From NCBI GenBank assembly GCA_048882505.1, contig JBHLRO010000045.1, positions 1 through 5,160 of the forward strand: a stretch of 5,160 bases of DNA, written 5' to 3'. The notes below the pieces were generated by a model. That model saw only the letters and a program-made list of their open reading frames with translations, did not search any database and was not told the DNA's origin. Below are positions 1 to 5,160 of the stretch, piece after piece (the first letter of the stretch is position 1; the number at the start of each line of letters is the position of its first letter). This stretch comes from Candidatus Thorarchaeota archaeon (GTDB taxonomy: Archaea > Asgardarchaeota > Heimdallarchaeia > Hodarchaeales > Hodarchaeaceae). Both the position numbers and the translations under genes were made by a program.

Positions 1-99
1 ACAAAGGCCTTGGCTATTCAGGTATGGAAACTAAATCTAGGTGCACAGACATCAGACCGTTCCTTTTTCCCACACTTCCCTTCCTATCGTTCTGATCCA

Positions 100-160
100 T
101 CCTAATCCTATCTGACGATTAGACTGCTCATTTTAACGCGGTAAGCTCTTGCGCGATTAG
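100..160. repeat. Copy A core: 61-bp imperfect direct repeat of the 23S 3' end plus trailer (1768-1828)
   Basis: tcctaatcctatctgacgattagactgctcattttaacgcggtaagctcttgcgcgattag vs tcctaatcctatttgacgattggactactcgtttcaacgcggtcagcccttgcgcgattag: 54/61 identical, ungapped, counted by hand. Weaker similarity extends left to ~47. Confidence 0.95.
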
Positions 161-340
161 TAACATCTATTGTGAAAGTCATAGCTGAGGATTTTGCCCT
201 CCTATAAAACCTCTACACCTGATTCACTTCCCCGAATGTTTCATTCCCGTTCCTTCAGTTTTATTTGGTTCCGAAACGAGGAGTTCGAAAACGACTGTTG
301 ACTCTTTCTTTACCTATTCATTAGCTTTTCATCTTCTTAG

Positions 341-841
341 TTACGGCACAAGAACCGTAGTATTCGTTTCCCATCGATGGAAGCCACTGGGACCTATTGC
401 AATAACCCCAACATAACAAACGGAAGTGGGTGGGAGAGAGAAGAGGGTATGAAATTCAAAGCGTGCTTCCTCATCCACTGCCAAGCTAAGATTTCCTTTA
501 ATAATTGTAACTTTAGTCGCATCCTGGATATCCCCAAGGCTTTTGTTAAATTCTAACCCCCCATCGGGAGTGGAATTGAATTCCATCACTGGTTTCCAGA
601 AATTAATCGGTTCCTTCCAGAGATATACATATTTGATGTGATATTGGTCTCCTTCTGGTCTTGAATCACCCTTGTAATAACAACCTGTGGTAAATCGAAT
701 GGTGCCATTGCTATAAACCCTCTCGTTGTCTACACGGAGTTCCATATACGAGAACGGTGTCAAGGTGAATGGTCTATCCCGAACCAACTCATTATATAGA
801 AGTATGTACCCCCCGAGTAAAACACAGAGCGTGATTGCCAA
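341..841 (-). CDS. Hypothetical membrane-anchored protein (~166 aa or slightly longer) with an N-terminal TM helix and a soluble beta-rich domain
   Basis: Long ORF. The frame is open upstream to 919 (..RISFRIRVVLPLAITLCVLLGGYILLYNE), giving a basic + hydrophobic anchor. The start codon is unclear and no family is recognised. Confidence 0.65.
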   Translation of the reverse strand: MAITLCVLLGGYILLYNELVRDRPFTLTPFSYMELRVDNERVYSNGTIRFTTGCYYKGDSRPEGDQYHIKYVYLWKEPINFWKPVMEFNSTPDGGLEFNKSLGDIQDATKVTIIKGNLSLAVDEEARFEFHTLFSLPPTSVCYVGVIAIGPSGFHRWETNTTVLVP

Positions 842-891
842 GGGGAGAACGACTCTAATTCGAAATGATATCCTCTCCAGTGGGCAAATAC

Positions 892-1226
892 CTATGTTTG
901 CAAAACCTTTCCATAGTTGCTACGTCGTATATTAGCCTACTAATTTCCAAACCCACATTTAAGGCAGATTTGCGGCCCCTCCATTATCTGGATCCTGAGC
1001 TCCAACCGCAGTATTGACGCATGTGTGATGAGTAAATAACTCCCTGCCATCATTGAAATAAAGCCCAACATAGCACATATGAGAAATCCTAGTGGATATA
1101 ACTTGCCCACTTCATGCCTTAGGACTAGAATTATCACCAATGCTCCCATAATCAGGACTACCCCTAATAGGGCCTTGAGATCCCACCTCCTCAAATTTCC
1201 TTCTTGAACATCCAATTTAATCCCAC
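892..1226 (-). pseudogene. Decayed paralog of the 1353-1673 zinc-ribbon membrane protein (ORF 940-1215 plus read-through remnant)
   Basis: AGSYLLITH...PQICLKCGFGN aligns with VGGYLLVIH...PRICPACHFAN. After TAG TAG the same frame reads ANIRRSNYGKVLQT* (stop 892-894), matching ISEGCGHCGTVFTKSD* with both second-knuckle Cys codons altered (CGT, TAT). Confidence 0.7.
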
Positions 1227-1338
1227 CTTACTTCACTCTTACCCTCAATCCTATCAGCGGTTCCAGACATCAGATCGACCCTTTTCACCCACATTCCTTT
1301 GATTGTCCTTCTTCTTACTCCTAGTACTATCTGACGAT
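1219..1338. repeat. Copy B: diverged copy of the 23S-trailer/leader element
   Basis: 1265-1338 vs 1714-1787 is 52/74 identical without gaps. The anchors aatcccacctt (1219/1666), agaYatcagatc (1265/1714) and tcctaRtMctatYtgacgat (1319/1768) recur at offsets of 447-449 bp. Confidence 0.85.
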
Positions 1339-1352
1339 CGCCTGTTTTTTTC

Positions 1353-1673
1353 CTAATCGCTCTTCGTAAACACCGTTCCACAATGGCCACACCCTTCACT
1401 TATGGTTGGATTGGCGAAATGGCAGGCTGGACAGATGCGCGGGGTCGTTATCGATTCCTCCACCATGAGTCCAGAAAGTAGCAGAGGTACATGTATTACG
1501 AGGAGGTATCCCCCGACAATCATTAGAACCAAGGCCAGCGCCCAGGTTTTTGCCTGCTCCTCCGGAATATACGTAAAAAACAACCATCCGATTAAGAATA
1601 GCACCAGGTCAAAAAGCACCTTCATCCCTGCCCCGCTCCAATTGACTTCCTGTTGTTCCAGCTCGAATCCCAC
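1353..1673 (-). CDS. Small membrane protein with 2 TM helices and a C-terminal zinc ribbon (CxxC-x10-CxxC)
   Basis: Hydrophobic segments VLFDLVLFLIGWLFFTYI and WALALVLMIVGGYLLVIHVPLLL, followed by CPACHFANPTISEGCGHCG. Start is uncertain (GTG 1673 or ATG 1625). Confidence 0.8.
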   Translation of the reverse strand: MGFELEQQEVNWSGAGMKVLFDLVLFLIGWLFFTYIPEEQAKTWALALVLMIVGGYLLVIHVPLLLSGLMVEESITTPRICPACHFANPTISEGCGHCGTVFTKSD

Positions 1674-1828
1674 CTTTGGTTTTATTCTACCGCAACTGTT
1701 AATAAACGTGTCTAGATATCAGATCAATCCAATTCCCCTTTACCTCTTCCATTGCGCTCCTTTTTTCTCCTAATCCTATTTGACGATTGGACTACTCGTT
1801 TCAACGCGGTCAGCCCTTGCGCGATTAG
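1666..1828. repeat. Copy C: rRNA-attached copy of the repeat (last ~20 nt of 23S plus ~140 nt downstream)
   Basis: Contains all anchors shared with copies A and B and overlaps the 23S 3' end at 1808-1828. Confidence 0.85.
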
Positions 1829-2145
1829 GGATGGCCAGTTAAACATGTCGGCCGAAGCCTCCACGCGTACGCTGCCATTCTATCAACGGGGTCTTCTACC
1901 CCAGCGCTCGTCTACTTGCCCACAGTTGCCGTCGCCAGCCCCTGTGTCTTTCCAGATACAAGCAGAGTGGATCTTTCTTTTCAAGGTGGGGTTCGTGCTT
2001 AGATGCTTTCAGCGCTTATCCCGTGGCGCGTGCCTGCCCGGCAATGCCCACCCGGACAACCGGTAGAGTAGAGGCGCCGACACCCCGTTCCTCTCGTACT
2101 GAGGGCACCTTCCTTTCAAAGATCCAACACGCTTATAGATAAGGA
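1808..2145 (-). rRNA. rrl: 23S (LSU) rRNA 3'-terminal fragment: H73 3' strand plus domain VI (about E. coli 2609 to the 3' end); partial gene
   Basis: The minus strand reads UCCUUAUCUAUAAGCGUGUUGGAUCUUUGAAAGG..., then the sarcin-ricin loop AGUACGAGAGGAAC (plus 2087-2100), CUACCGGUUGUCC, GGGAUAAGCGCUGAAAGCAUCUAAGCACGAA, GUUGAUAG and the terminal CUAAUCGCGCAAGGGCUGACC. These are conserved LSU domain VI motifs in the correct order. The H94 strands GGAUCUUU/AAAGAUCC pair. Similarity stops abruptly at ~2145, where the expected upstream GUGAGACAG.. (H93) is replaced by AT-rich sequence. Ends are approximate. Confidence 0.95.
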
Positions 2146-2223
2146 TATTTTATTGAAATAGGCCTTCTTATTGGATTTGGATACCAATTCATTTACAGAT
2201 TAGTTTTATTATCTGCTGATCTC

Positions 2224-2595
2224 CTAAGAATCCGTATTGTGGTCAATTTCAGTAAGCATAGAATTGATCTTTTTCCCTGTTTCTGTAAGTCCATATAGTC
2301 TTCCTTTTGTAGATGAAGGTGAAAGACATAAGACAATTCTCCTTTCCTTAAGTTTTGCAAGGCATTCGCTTACCGTTGAGAAGTTAATCTTAAGTTCCTT
2401 AGCCAATTCAGACGGAAAATATGGCCTTTTTCCCAATTGTGTGATAATTCTGTAACGATTTCTACTAATTCTCCCGTAAGAGGCCAGTTCCCATAATTCA
2501 TCCTCGTTACACAACGTTGTTGAACCTCCACACTCAAGTCTGTTGAGCTTCGCCACCCTTAAGTAAAGAATCTTCTTGACATATTTTTGAGTCAA
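2224..2595 (-). CDS. Winged helix-turn-helix transcriptional regulator (ArsR/MarR-like, small archaeal type); true start probably TTG at 2514 (~96 aa)
   Basis: SRNRYRIITQL..PYFPSELAKELKINFSTVSECLAKLKERRIV..KGRLYGLTETGK fits the wHTH pattern (helix, PSELA-x-EL HTH, wing GRxYxLTxxG). GGAGGT (SD-like) lies 9 nt before the in-frame TTG at 2514. Confidence 0.85.
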   Translation of the reverse strand: MTQKYVKKILYLRVAKLNRLECGGSTTLCNEDELWELASYGRISRNRYRIITQLGKRPYFPSELAKELKINFSTVSECLAKLKERRIVLCLSPSSTKGRLYGLTETGKKINSMLTEIDHNTDS

Positions 2596-2601
2596 TCTGC
2601 C

Positions 2602-2620
2602 TTTATAAATCCTTTCATGA
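2602..2620. promoter_or_regulatory. TATA-like box plus TCATGA palindrome, copy 1 (TTTATAAAT-cct-TTCATGA)
   Basis: Archaeal TATA consensus readable on both strands, upstream of the wHTH gene; 16/19 identical to 3001-3019. Confidence 0.45.
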
Positions 2621-2624
2621 ACTA

Positions 2625-2890
2625 TTGCGACTGTACTCGGTGGGCAGGAGCATTTCCTTCTCTTCCGCTATAAAAAATTTTAGGGGACACCTGCCCTGCA
2701 AAGCTTTCTGACCTTTCTCCTGCTAGTTGCTCAGAATTTCCGCAGGCCAGCTGGATACAATCATAAACTCGTGGATCCAACACCCTCCTATCTCCAGGAG
2801 GTCCACCCTCTCTTCGATTCAAACAGGAGCCCGTCACCTATCAACATTGTACTGGTAAGTGACACATTCGTCAGCTAACGGTGTATTTTT
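2625..2890. ncRNA. Second candidate structured RNA block of unknown family
   Basis: Stems gggcagg/cctgccc (2642-2648/2690-2696), cctgc/gcagg (2719-2723/2742-2746) and nested gtgga..cctcct/aggagg..tccac (2771-2806). No convincing ORF. Confidence 0.35.
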
Positions 2891-3000
2891 CTCAAATCAG
2901 GTTGATCCTTTCCTTGGGGAACCTTTTTGTGTTAAAGACTGTTAATAACTTCCGTTGCCCTTGATGCCACAGAGGGCCTGCTGAAGAACTTCATTTAGTT

Positions 3001-3019
3001 TTTATAAATGGATTCATGA
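3001..3019. promoter_or_regulatory. TATA-like box plus TCATGA palindrome, copy 2 (TTTATAAAT-gga-TTCATGA)
   Basis: Same motif and spacing as 2602-2620; directly precedes the hairpin cluster at 3030-3246. Confidence 0.45.
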
Positions 3020-3029
3020 CCGTGAATAT

Positions 3030-3246
3030 ATCCCAATGGGCGGCCCTATGGGCCCGCGGGTACCCTCTCCTTGGCACGCCAGATTTTCTGGTCAGTTTCT
3101 CTCAGATACCCAGCCCATCGGTCGGATCCTGGAGTGATAAATCCAGATTGGGTTGCTGTCACATACCTCCACAACGAGGTTGTGACCTTAGCTATACCTT
3201 CAGACAGACTGAAAGGATCATTAATAGCTCTAGTTCACTTTTTTTT
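3030..3246 (+). ncRNA. Candidate structured non-coding RNA of unknown family (strand tentative)
   Basis: Consecutive hairpins at 3042-3054, 3079-3091, 3129-3146, 3158-3186 and 3190-3229. It is preceded by TTTATAAA (3001-3008) and followed by T8 (3239-3246). The overlapping ORFs of 71-79 aa look non-coding. Confidence 0.45.
3239..3246 (+). terminator. Oligo-T tract, possible archaeal terminator of the plus-strand candidate RNA
   Basis: T8 immediately after the last stem (agctat/atagct, 3190-3229). Confidence 0.35.
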
Positions 3247-3524
3247 ATTGTTTAACTACGGTTATCCTTCATATCGGGGTGTTTGAGGCAGCAATTAATG
3301 CATTGTAAACATAAATTGCAAACGATTCGTTTTCATCGTGCACAACGGGTGTCATCGACGAGAAACTGATGTTTTAACTATTCTAGATCTGAATACTTTG
3401 TATTCCCAAGACCCAGTTTTCTAGGAACTTGGTACAGGCTGGAAATGTTTGAAAGAACAGAATCGAAACAAGATCCAGGCGATTAAAGCCTTAGGGGCCT
3501 TTACGAACCTCTCAAAATATCTCC

Positions 3525-4058
3525 TTAGTACTCAACCGATACCCGTATGTGATCCATCCAAACATCATTAATCGTTTTGGCAACGTATACATAAATGACG
3601 AAATTATCGGGATTGGCATACGTATCCGTGATATCTACAACAACAGAACGGTATTCGAAATCTCCAACATTGATCATCATCCACCCTGATGTACCTTTCA
3701 GTCTCCCATTATAATATACCTGTGCATAAAACTCAGCCCAACTCCAGCTTGCTAATGCCCTGAGCGAAACATCCACTTGTTTTATAGTTTTTGTTCCTAT
3801 ATCAAAGGAATAACCATCAGTCTTGACTTTTCCCCAACTAGAATACCAAGAAATTAGGGCAGCGTCCCCGCCAACATCTACGATATTCCCTGGATACCAT
3901 ACGTTGCCTGCATCATAAGCAAAAGATGAATTTTTATAATTTGTCCAAACAGCTAGGATTGCAGATGTCGTACTGAGCGCAAGGACTATCAAAAAGCTAG
4001 ATAGAATCTTTTTCTTAAACTTCGGTTTGCTCAAACGTTCACACCTCTTTTGAGACAT
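3525..4058 (-). CDS. Hypothetical secreted or N-terminally anchored protein, 177 aa, predicted beta-rich extracellular domain
   Basis: ATG start; basic N-terminus (KPKFKKK) followed by a hydrophobic helix (ILSSFLIVLALSTTSAILAVW); alternating aromatic/hydrophobic strand pattern ending in WMDHIRVSVEY. No family recognised. Confidence 0.8.
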   Translation of the reverse strand: MSQKRCERLSKPKFKKKILSSFLIVLALSTTSAILAVWTNYKNSSFAYDAGNVWYPGNIVDVGGDAALISWYSSWGKVKTDGYSFDIGTKTIKQVDVSLRALASWSWAEFYAQVYYNGRLKGTSGWMMINVGDFEYRSVVVDITDTYANPDNFVIYVYVAKTINDVWMDHIRVSVEY

Positions 4059-4900
4059 TTGTGATAGAATTGGTGATAGAGGATGCTTTATTAGGGTTAT
4101 TAATGAATTCTTGAGAGATTATTACTCAATACTTGACACATTATTCATCCTCATGAAAAGCAATAGAGTGTTTACATTGTTTTCAATTTCTCCAGCTTTG
4201 TTAATAGATGGTTATCAACCTAACTTGAAAATGCCTCTTCCAATGAGCAAGGGTTATCTAGGTACCAGGATGTAACAAACGTTTTTCCTCTAAACTCCTC
4301 TATCGTAGATAAGCCTCGTCAGATTCCAACAGTATTCCCGCAGGCTGGCATTTCAATTTGAAAATACGCACAACTATATAATATTGATTTAAACGACCAT
4401 CGAAAATAAGATGCTTAACTAGTGGTTTCTTATTATTAACTGAATGCCTCTCGATTTTATAGAACTTGACCTAAAATCCACTAATGAAAAAATATTGATT
4501 AATAAACCTCGACAGGGCTTTGGGCTAGTTTTATGGGATGGTGGGCTAAGATATTTTTGGCGGTGTCTTTCAGACTATTATCAAACTGCTGGCAGGTTTG
4601 GGACAAGGGGGGGCTAATGTTCGGACAATGTGGGTTTCTGTAGTATAATAGGCTGCTAAGATATCTAGGCTGGTACATTACTAGAGTTCATGATTGCTCC
4701 TATTAACAAATACAGGTCTCTATCAGCTTGGTTTCTGGTTTTTTGAACGCTCGTATGATAAATGGATATTCCCCTTTAGAATAGGTTGTTAAGTTTACTG
4801 ATGGGAGTTTAGGTTTGCCAATCTTTTCATGATGTCGGATGTCAATCCAATGTTCGGTTGGGCCGACGCTAATCGCTTAATTCACTCGTAACTATTTTTT

Positions 4901-5160
4901 TTACCTATTCCATGTTTCTATCAATTGGAGAAAGGAATTTTTTGAAATATCGAGAAGATCCTTTTTAATTCTTCCATCTTCGAGGAGGATGACTCTGTCA
5001 CCATTTTGAGGGATGTTAAAGTCATGCGTCGAAATAATCAATAAGCAATTTCTTTGTTGAGTGGCTCCACGTAATAAATTAATGATTTCAGTTGCTGTTT
5101 CCATATCTAAGGCTCCAGTTGGTTCATCTGCCAAAATAAGTTTGGGATCATTTACAAGTG
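4901..5160 (-). CDS. ABC transporter ATP-binding protein, LolD/MacB(SalX)-type, C-terminal part (5' end outside the window)
   Basis: The frame is open from the window edge: LVNDPKLILADEPTGALD (Walker B + D-loop) ... LLIISTHD (H-switch) ... DRVILLEDGRI. The TTG at 5134 in the ORF track is internal, not the start. Confidence 0.93.
   Translation of the reverse strand, partial: LVNDPKLILADEPTGALDMETATEIINLLRGATQQRNCLLIISTHDFNIPQNGDRVILLEDGRIKKDLLDISKNSFLQLIETWNR

Follow-up and report, generated by a model that had tools for sequence, protein, structure and literature searches.

The first 5,160 nt of the 9.5-kb contig C45 (the window) from a Candidatus Thorarchaeota archaeon, whose metagenome-assembled genome (MAG; G000) comprises 4.3 Mb in 83 contigs, contain three diverged copies (A, B and C) of an element of ~110 nt among protein-coding genes, and raise the question of what this element is and why it recurs there. 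The window copies are orphan 23S tails, each consisting of the last few to ~24 nt of 23S rRNA and a ~110-nt leader-pairing trailer. The explanation slightly favoured here is that they belong to an island of accessory genes, variable between species, that would have grown from the 3′ flank of the 23S gene and been shuffled by homologous recombination between orphan tails. Relatives used for comparison were the congeners G007, G001 and G016, two genomes of another family in the class (the second family; G022, G030, searched with each genome's own trailer as query) and a third family (G021, G025).

Identity and distribution of the element

A profile built from the three proposed window copies, iterated over the whole G000 genome and searched with nhmmer, finds 30 members of ~110 nt. 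It recovers all three copies of the original prediction, and the reported distances between the motifs agaYatcaga and tcctaRt (54, 54 and 53 nt) and the 52/74 ungapped identities between C and B were reproduced (random offsets give 19 ± 4). A (100–160) and C (1768–1828) are 89% identical over 61 nt, including the last ~24 nt of 23S rRNA, and nhmmer with the family profile detects no fourth copy in the window even at E 50. In the genome, 26 members lie on the small contigs C45, C47, C48, C52, C59 and C81, with three weak members on C20 and one on C38; contigs >10 kb hold 4/30, one of these four being the leader complement. This C38 member (2099–2190) is on the opposite strand, only 8 nt away from where the large-subunit (LSU) rRNA begins, and so represents the 23S leader in reverse complement. 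Predicted pairing between leader and trailer extends over ~100 nt, with cofolding energies of −97 kcal/mol for the C45 trailer and −121 kcal/mol for the C52 trailer. The leader complement on C38 and this cofolding identify the element as the trailer (3′) strand of the processing stem of 23S pre-rRNA. The earlier claim that the repeat is a 23S 3′ tail and trailer conserved as nucleic acid, not as protein, is supported.

In addition to the trailer, the length of 23S 3′ end that a copy carries ranges from none to ~311 nt; copy C and C52:7406 directly follow the end of the LSU model. Two blocks of the element are well conserved, on either side of a variable, purine-rich centre. In the predicted duplex with the leader, block 1 (CCAATCGTCAGATAGGATTAGGA) provides a 3-nt AGA bulge beside a 5-bp helix and, with a 4×2 internal loop, would correspond to a relaxed form of the bulge-helix-bulge (BHB) motif; block 2 (GGAGCGGTCTGATGTCTG) makes the outer helix of the leader–trailer stem. 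A self-folding RNA or an attC hairpin was ruled out, since RNAalifold finds no consensus on either strand and attC-type single-stranded DNA folds of four copies, both strands, give z-scores of −0.75 to +1.55; the only 8-bp inverted match in the element shows non-compensatory changes in the alignment. Complementary DNA of a ligated leader–trailer RNA was also rejected as the source of the copies, because no shared leader-derived sequence is present upstream of them. Besides G007, a scan of genome collections with ATCGTCAGATAGNNTWAGGA identified Ca. Hodarchaeum mangrovi, with a partial copy; the remaining matches in genome, metagenome and viral collections are to the pattern only and attributable to chance.

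The genes behind the G000 copies are unrelated (FG-GAP, WD40, CBM96, PsbP-like, HEPN, toxin-antitoxin pairs, histone-like), and Pfam scans of ~40 array open reading frames (ORFs) identified surface or secreted repeat proteins, zinc-ribbon, toxin-antitoxin and HEPN-type proteins, a methyltransferase and an aldolase. The histone-like candidate, a 67-aa ORF on C81 (1053–1256, minus strand), resembles the archaeal histone fold by eye only, is interrupted by a 10-N stretch and lies in the array behind a 66-aa ORF that follows the copy at C81:1581–1484. On C48, one copy is inverted relative to all others on the contig (3900–4002, plus; 4313–4363, minus), and this inverted copy and a truncated forward copy bracket an 85-aa ORF.

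Comparable arrays are present in relatives. In G007 (C8; 54.7 kb), the 3′ part of the real LSU gene (53937–54756) is followed by 27 copies of the genome's own trailer down to position 5227, an array of 49 kb in which 26/27 copies are on the same strand (lone inverted copy, 7600–7669). The array on G022:C95 likewise starts behind the real 23S gene, and these two cases agree with the proposal that the rRNA 3′ end is a point of accumulation. G001:C65 (15 kb) carries six copies of a different, species-specific trailer, and several domain-VI fragments occur in G001. As predicted, the repeat heads cassette-like units and has many further copies, with ~30 in G000, 27 in G007 and six on a single G001 contig. 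Further copies are present in G016, which has no cassettes in common with G000; comparison of relatives for gain or loss, as had been proposed, accordingly finds content that is wholly different between these two.

The second family has at least 49 copies, a lower bound from the contigs of G022 and G030 that were fetched, of an unrelated unit of ~200 nt made up of the last ~24 nt of 23S plus trailer. These copies are co-oriented within each contig (e.g. G030:C28, C31 and C33), as are all three in the window. The second-family unit (G030:C28, C31, C33; G022:C95, C102) includes an oligo-T run, a small conserved hairpin (CCCTAcaaTCTCAGGTGAGActAGGG) and a TATA-like sequence (TTTATTTATTAAAG), and from these motifs looks like a terminator-plus-promoter module. 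The third family provides a normal control, with only the trailer and its leader complement and no array. In the closed congeners G009, G015 and G006 no LSU match was found, and the array could not be placed with these.

Orphan rRNA and the junction at copy C

The rRNA adjacent to copy C (Table 1) is an orphan domain-VI fragment, not an rRNA gene, because only positions 2721–2973 of the LSU model are covered and protein genes precede the fragment. The final ~14 nt of the LSU model run on from it to ~1806, and an Rfam scan found no further rRNA in the ~3 kb upstream (2130–5160). A twin of the fragment lies at C52:7081–7391, behind a different protein-coding ORF. The rRNA parts of the C45 and C52 twins are identical at 317/320 positions, with 83% identity in block 1 of the trailer and 46% in the trailer centre. 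In a three-way alignment the window matches C52 as far as ...GACCGCG and then, from TTGAAAC on, C47:393–823 (94%), the upstream flank of which is unrelated to the window, so that the partner switches exactly at GYG|TTGAAA. This switch marks copy C as a recombinant junction, rRNA-type to the left and cassette-type to the right, which joins the orphan domain-VI module to a ‘trailer + zinc-ribbon gene’ module at the 23S 3′ end. The earlier description of C as heading an intact zinc-ribbon gene and B its decayed paralog, with a period of ~449 nt, therefore stands, but C is attached to an orphan fragment and not to an rRNA gene.

A split LSU gene, with domain VI encoded apart, is not supported in G007, where the LSU is continuous across model position 2721 (2545 to 2987) and the orphan fragments are decayed: LSU model scores are lower, and in one of the two the sarcin-ricin loop is mutated and 7 nt are deleted. 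The orphan rRNA pieces read as decaying duplicates when compared with the intact gene. In domain V, near model position 2651, the real 23S of G007 (C8:53937–54756) contains 337 nt of inserted sequence, which may represent an intron although its length would not accommodate a homing-endonuclease ORF.

Contigs G000:C38 and G016:C9 both break off within the LSU gene at model position 2078, as does G030:C1 at 2717, and the LSU stretch 2079–2720 is absent from the G000 assembly; the repetition of 23S 3′ ends is the probable cause of these breaks. G000 also includes a complete LSU on C57 (307–3242), only 65–75% identical to the rRNA pieces of C38, C45 and C52 and with no flanking element copy. Given these two features, it is doubtful that this is the gene of the source organism, and C57 is probably a contaminant contig or carries a very divergent second gene. 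In G007 (C9:1–6000) 16S and 23S are linked, with a block 2 complement upstream of 16S, while in G000 and G016 23S stands alone and its leader holds complements of both blocks ~45 nt apart; this leader looks as if 16S had been removed from between the block complements. The G007 16S spans 2225 nt, implying ~750 nt of inserts.

Table 1 Features identified in the window
Feature	Position (nt)	Strand	Evidence
Element copy A: last ~24 nt of 23S rRNA (137–160) plus trailer copy (31–136)	31–160	minus	nhmmer E 8e-23
166-aa gene of unknown family, N-terminal hydrophobic segment	341–841	minus	ORF list; no Pfam match
Cassette gene B: 91-aa truncated paralog of gene C, second CxxC lost	940–1215	minus	BLASTP and alignment
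Element copy B	1249–1340	minus	nhmmer E 3e-20, profile positions 17–108
Cassette gene C: 106-aa small membrane protein, two transmembrane helices, C-terminal CxxC...CxxC zinc ribbon	1353–1673	minus	ORF list, paralog alignment
Element copy C: full-length 23S trailer copy	1700–1805	minus	nhmmer E 4e-25, profile positions 1–106
Orphan 23S rRNA fragment, domain VI	1819–2129	minus	Rfam RF02540, 222.7 bits, E 1.5e-67, LSU model 2721–2973 of 2987
ArsR/MarR-type winged-helix gene, directly upstream of orphan rRNA fragment	2224–2595	minus	Pfam HTH_5, E 2e-8

Gene C starts 27 nt past copy C, and the only database relative found for its product is the paralog on C47. Copy B lies 449 nt from copy C, and its degenerate 5′ part extends to ~1356, touching the gene C stop codon; B-type units are found again at C47:5292–5634, C52:5010–5340 and C52:7423–7675 (~79% identity). 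The gene B product is 58% identical to a 112-aa relative on C47 and 27% identical to that of gene C (E 4e-6), and the 112-aa relatives on C47 and C52 retain both CxxC pairs. No element copy was detected by nhmmer --max between the 166-aa gene and gene B (842–939). The copy A unit is 87% identical over its whole length to C52:7382–7496, with unrelated sequence downstream. The contig stops 30 nt beyond copy A, position 1 of the window being the end of C45, and no other contig overlaps this position.

Upstream, the ~900 nt between the ArsR-type gene and a 177-aa gene (2596–3524) contain no convincing ORF and have no Rfam match or genomic repeat elsewhere. A scaffold gap of 100 N on C45 is preceded (window 5084–5160) and followed (C45:5261–5337) by the same 77 nt; this identity indicates that the gap is an unmerged overlap, across which the ABC-transporter ATPase gene (minus strand, from 4901) runs on without a break.

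Proposed recombination between copies and competing explanations

Where two copies share an upstream or downstream module, their similarity stops at the left edge, after block 1, at the border of centre and block 2, or beyond block 2. In the second family, the unit has shared modules linked to it on one side or the other, and left breakpoints fall at profile positions 3, 5, 39 and 81. Both 5′- and 3′-truncated copies occur. Scattered breakpoints, which are not the pattern of a site-specific enzyme, and truncation at both ends suggest homologous recombination and gene conversion within 100–200 nt of homology, plus occasional illegitimate joins. Units had been predicted to age with distance from the rRNA gene, but no such gradient was found in G007, where similarity to the real trailer does not fall along the array: a copy 28.7 kb away is 94% identical to it and the nearest orphan 71%.

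We infer that ordinary homologous recombination between copies, with a contribution from illegitimate joins, both enlarges and rearranges the island. Modules would be moved, deleted or duplicated by loop-out from between two copies and re-insertion at another, by unequal exchange and by gene conversion; each would thereby remain bounded by a tail copy, and a dedicated recombinase would not be needed. Of the tyrosine recombinase and reverse transcriptase suggested earlier as things to look for nearby, the former was not found on any array contig and neither was found among the array ORFs scanned. Pfam scans of the ~40 array ORFs found no recombinase, transposase or reverse transcriptase (reverse transcriptase, serine-recombinase and Cas1 families were not searched genome-wide), and PF00589, searched in G000, G007, G001, G016, G022 and G030, matches no array contig, only other contigs in these six genomes. 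The single PF00589 gene of G000 is on C5 and has counterparts of similar score in G016, G007 and G001.

Several points weigh against recombination between tails as a full account. Homologous recombination explains shuffling, not how an unrelated gene first gained a tail copy. Left ends of copies are concentrated close to the 23S 3′ end (in G000 at about −24 or between −8 and 0 relative to it, in the second family mostly at −20 to −28), as if a site or an RNA end might be defined there. Blocks 1 and 2, including the unpaired AGA bulge, are far better kept than the centre, and this could reflect functional selection. A recombinase acting in trans, or one of an unknown family, may still be involved. 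All genomes compared are fragmented MAGs, the true 23S 3′ end of G000 being absent from the assembly, and many array ORFs have no Pfam match.

Some of these points would fit a role at the RNA level, an explanation that we consider unlikely, in which copies act as cleavage or termination signals punctuating island transcripts or form leader–orphan duplexes for splicing endonuclease and ligase. Ligation of leader to trailer after rRNA excision is known in archaea. The element spans about the whole leader-pairing strand, from about the 23S 3′ end, near which the left ends cluster, to about the end of pairing, and block 1 contains a bulge-helix-type motif (AA-UCGUC-AGA-UAG) with the unpaired AGA kept in 17–18 of 19 copies. 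Orphan positions can pair with the leader in register at 70%, versus 35–46% when slid, many G000 copies lie 24–37 nt before a co-oriented start codon, and the oligo-T run and TATA-like box of the second-family unit point the same way. However, pairing is expected by descent anyway, and pair-preserving changes are not favoured (A-to-G opposite leader U, 21%; G-to-A opposite leader C, 24%). The predicted motif departs from the canonical 3-4-3 BHB, many copies are truncated, a third of the G007 copies and about half of those in the second family face opposite-strand genes, and the attached rRNA fragments decay. Selection for leader pairing in the purine-rich centre was ruled out, the purine/pyrimidine asymmetry test being unbiased.

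A bolder combination of the two ideas can be put forward only tentatively: at least two Heimdall-group families would use the single 23S flank as a recombinase-free homology platform, each tail copy serving also as an RNA termination, processing or leader-pairing signal, with island genes cut from, or coupled to, rRNA-driven transcripts.

Site-specific capture, as in integrons or in the islands formed by the staphylococcal cassette chromosome (SCC) or at tRNA genes, would have a recombinase, encoded elsewhere in the genome or belonging to an unknown family, place circular cassettes into the 23S tail/trailer and duplicate the 3′ end of the target. Such capture would account for copies that are direct repeats of the 3′ end of a conserved gene, in an array adjoining the intact gene, with left ends near the 23S 3′ end and the copy C junction at G|TTGAAA. 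It would also fit the small, compact modules, many of which resemble toxin-antitoxin genes or have no known function, and the variation of their content by species; canonical integrons are present in Asgard MAGs (PMC9668308). Capture of this kind nevertheless seems quite improbable, as an attC-like fold was not found, no array contig has a tyrosine recombinase, breakpoints fall at several positions within the unit, copies are truncated at 5′ and at 3′ ends, and similarity shows no gradient away from the 23S gene. The integron-like mechanism of the original prediction is likewise not supported, no attC-type hairpin, no tyrosine recombinase on the array contigs and no single crossover point having been found.

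The element might instead be mobile itself, like a short interspersed nuclear element (SINE) or a miniature inverted-repeat transposable element (MITE), derived from the rRNA 3′ end and inserted between resident genes that would then not be cassettes. Although it is short, non-coding, variably truncated and without a protein of its own, this is very improbable. Copies are clustered and co-oriented beside the source gene, not dispersed (the 4/30 on contigs >10 kb in G000), terminal inverted repeats and a hairpin were not found, truncation affects both ends and not only the 5′ end as in long interspersed nuclear element (LINE)-like elements, and modules travel together with copies. Simple tandem duplication of one ‘trailer + zinc-ribbon gene’ unit followed by decay, the alternative raised originally, is suggested by the paralogous genes headed by C and B 449 nt apart but is hardly tenable as one old duplication, with ~30 mosaic copies before unrelated genes and arrays in five other genomes whose content is not common to relatives.

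Recombination between orphan tails, if it drives gene exchange, would amount to an integron-like solution without an integrase and would explain why MAG assemblies break here and at 23S. If copies are also read as RNA signals, expression of accessory genes would be linked to ribosome synthesis, and the copies would be a new class of substrate for the splicing endonuclease. For annotation, orphan rRNA fragments are at risk of being mistaken for rRNA genes or split rRNA genes.

Relation to known systems

An organisation of variable genes in which copies of an rRNA processing signal link dozens of accessory modules downstream of the sole 23S gene, here in the lineage of archaea closest to eukaryotes, was not found in the literature searched. 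A full-text search found no mention of repeated rRNA trailers, including in studies of integrons in Asgard MAGs (Ghaly et al. 2022, PMC9668308), of a single element next to 16S in Heimdallarchaeum (Wu et al. 2022, PMC8813620) and in recent work on archaeal rRNA circularisation (PMC12918454).

Among known systems, the archaeal pre-rRNA processing stem with its BHB motif (EndA cut, RtcB joining) is close, since the element is the 3′ strand of that stem; G021 and G025 show the normal single pair. However, one trailer per 23S gene is normal, whereas here there are ~30–50 extra copies without a partner leader or rRNA, and the predicted motif would be a relaxed BHB, not a canonical one. Integron arrays and clusters of attC sites lacking integron-integrases (CALINs), such as the Vibrio super-integron and archaeal integrons (PMC9668308), resemble the island in their long one-orientation arrays of small modules, mostly unknown or toxin-antitoxin, separated by a repeat of ~100–200 nt. 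They differ in that the repeat here is a 23S tail/trailer without the R′′-L′′/L′-R′ hairpin, that IntI and attI were not found and it is the 23S gene that heads the array (G007, G022), and that a single G|TT crossover was not found.

Integrative elements at tRNA and transfer-messenger RNA (tmRNA) genes and SCCmec islands at rlmH also accrete in tandem at the 3′ end of a conserved gene. In these, as here, direct repeats of the target 3′ end bound the modules, the intact gene lies at one end and the duplicated length varies. The target here is the 23S flank, modules are 0.4–12 kb with no integrase or Ccr recombinase found, and there are dozens of repeats with scattered breakpoints and no order from proximal-young to distal-old. 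HeimM2 of Ca. Heimdallarchaeum, a single 8-kb element beside the 16S gene with a homing-endonuclease homologue (PMC8813620), is likewise accessory DNA that lies precisely beside a single-copy rRNA gene of a Heimdall-group archaeon, but lacks repeated rRNA tails and forms no array.

More remotely, the island recalls eukaryotic rDNA in that the flanking signals of an rRNA gene have been multiplied downstream of the large-subunit gene. Eukaryotic rDNA intergenic spacers contain repeated, tandem, non-coding promoter and terminator copies between rDNA units, whereas here the copies are interspersed with protein genes behind a single 23S gene.

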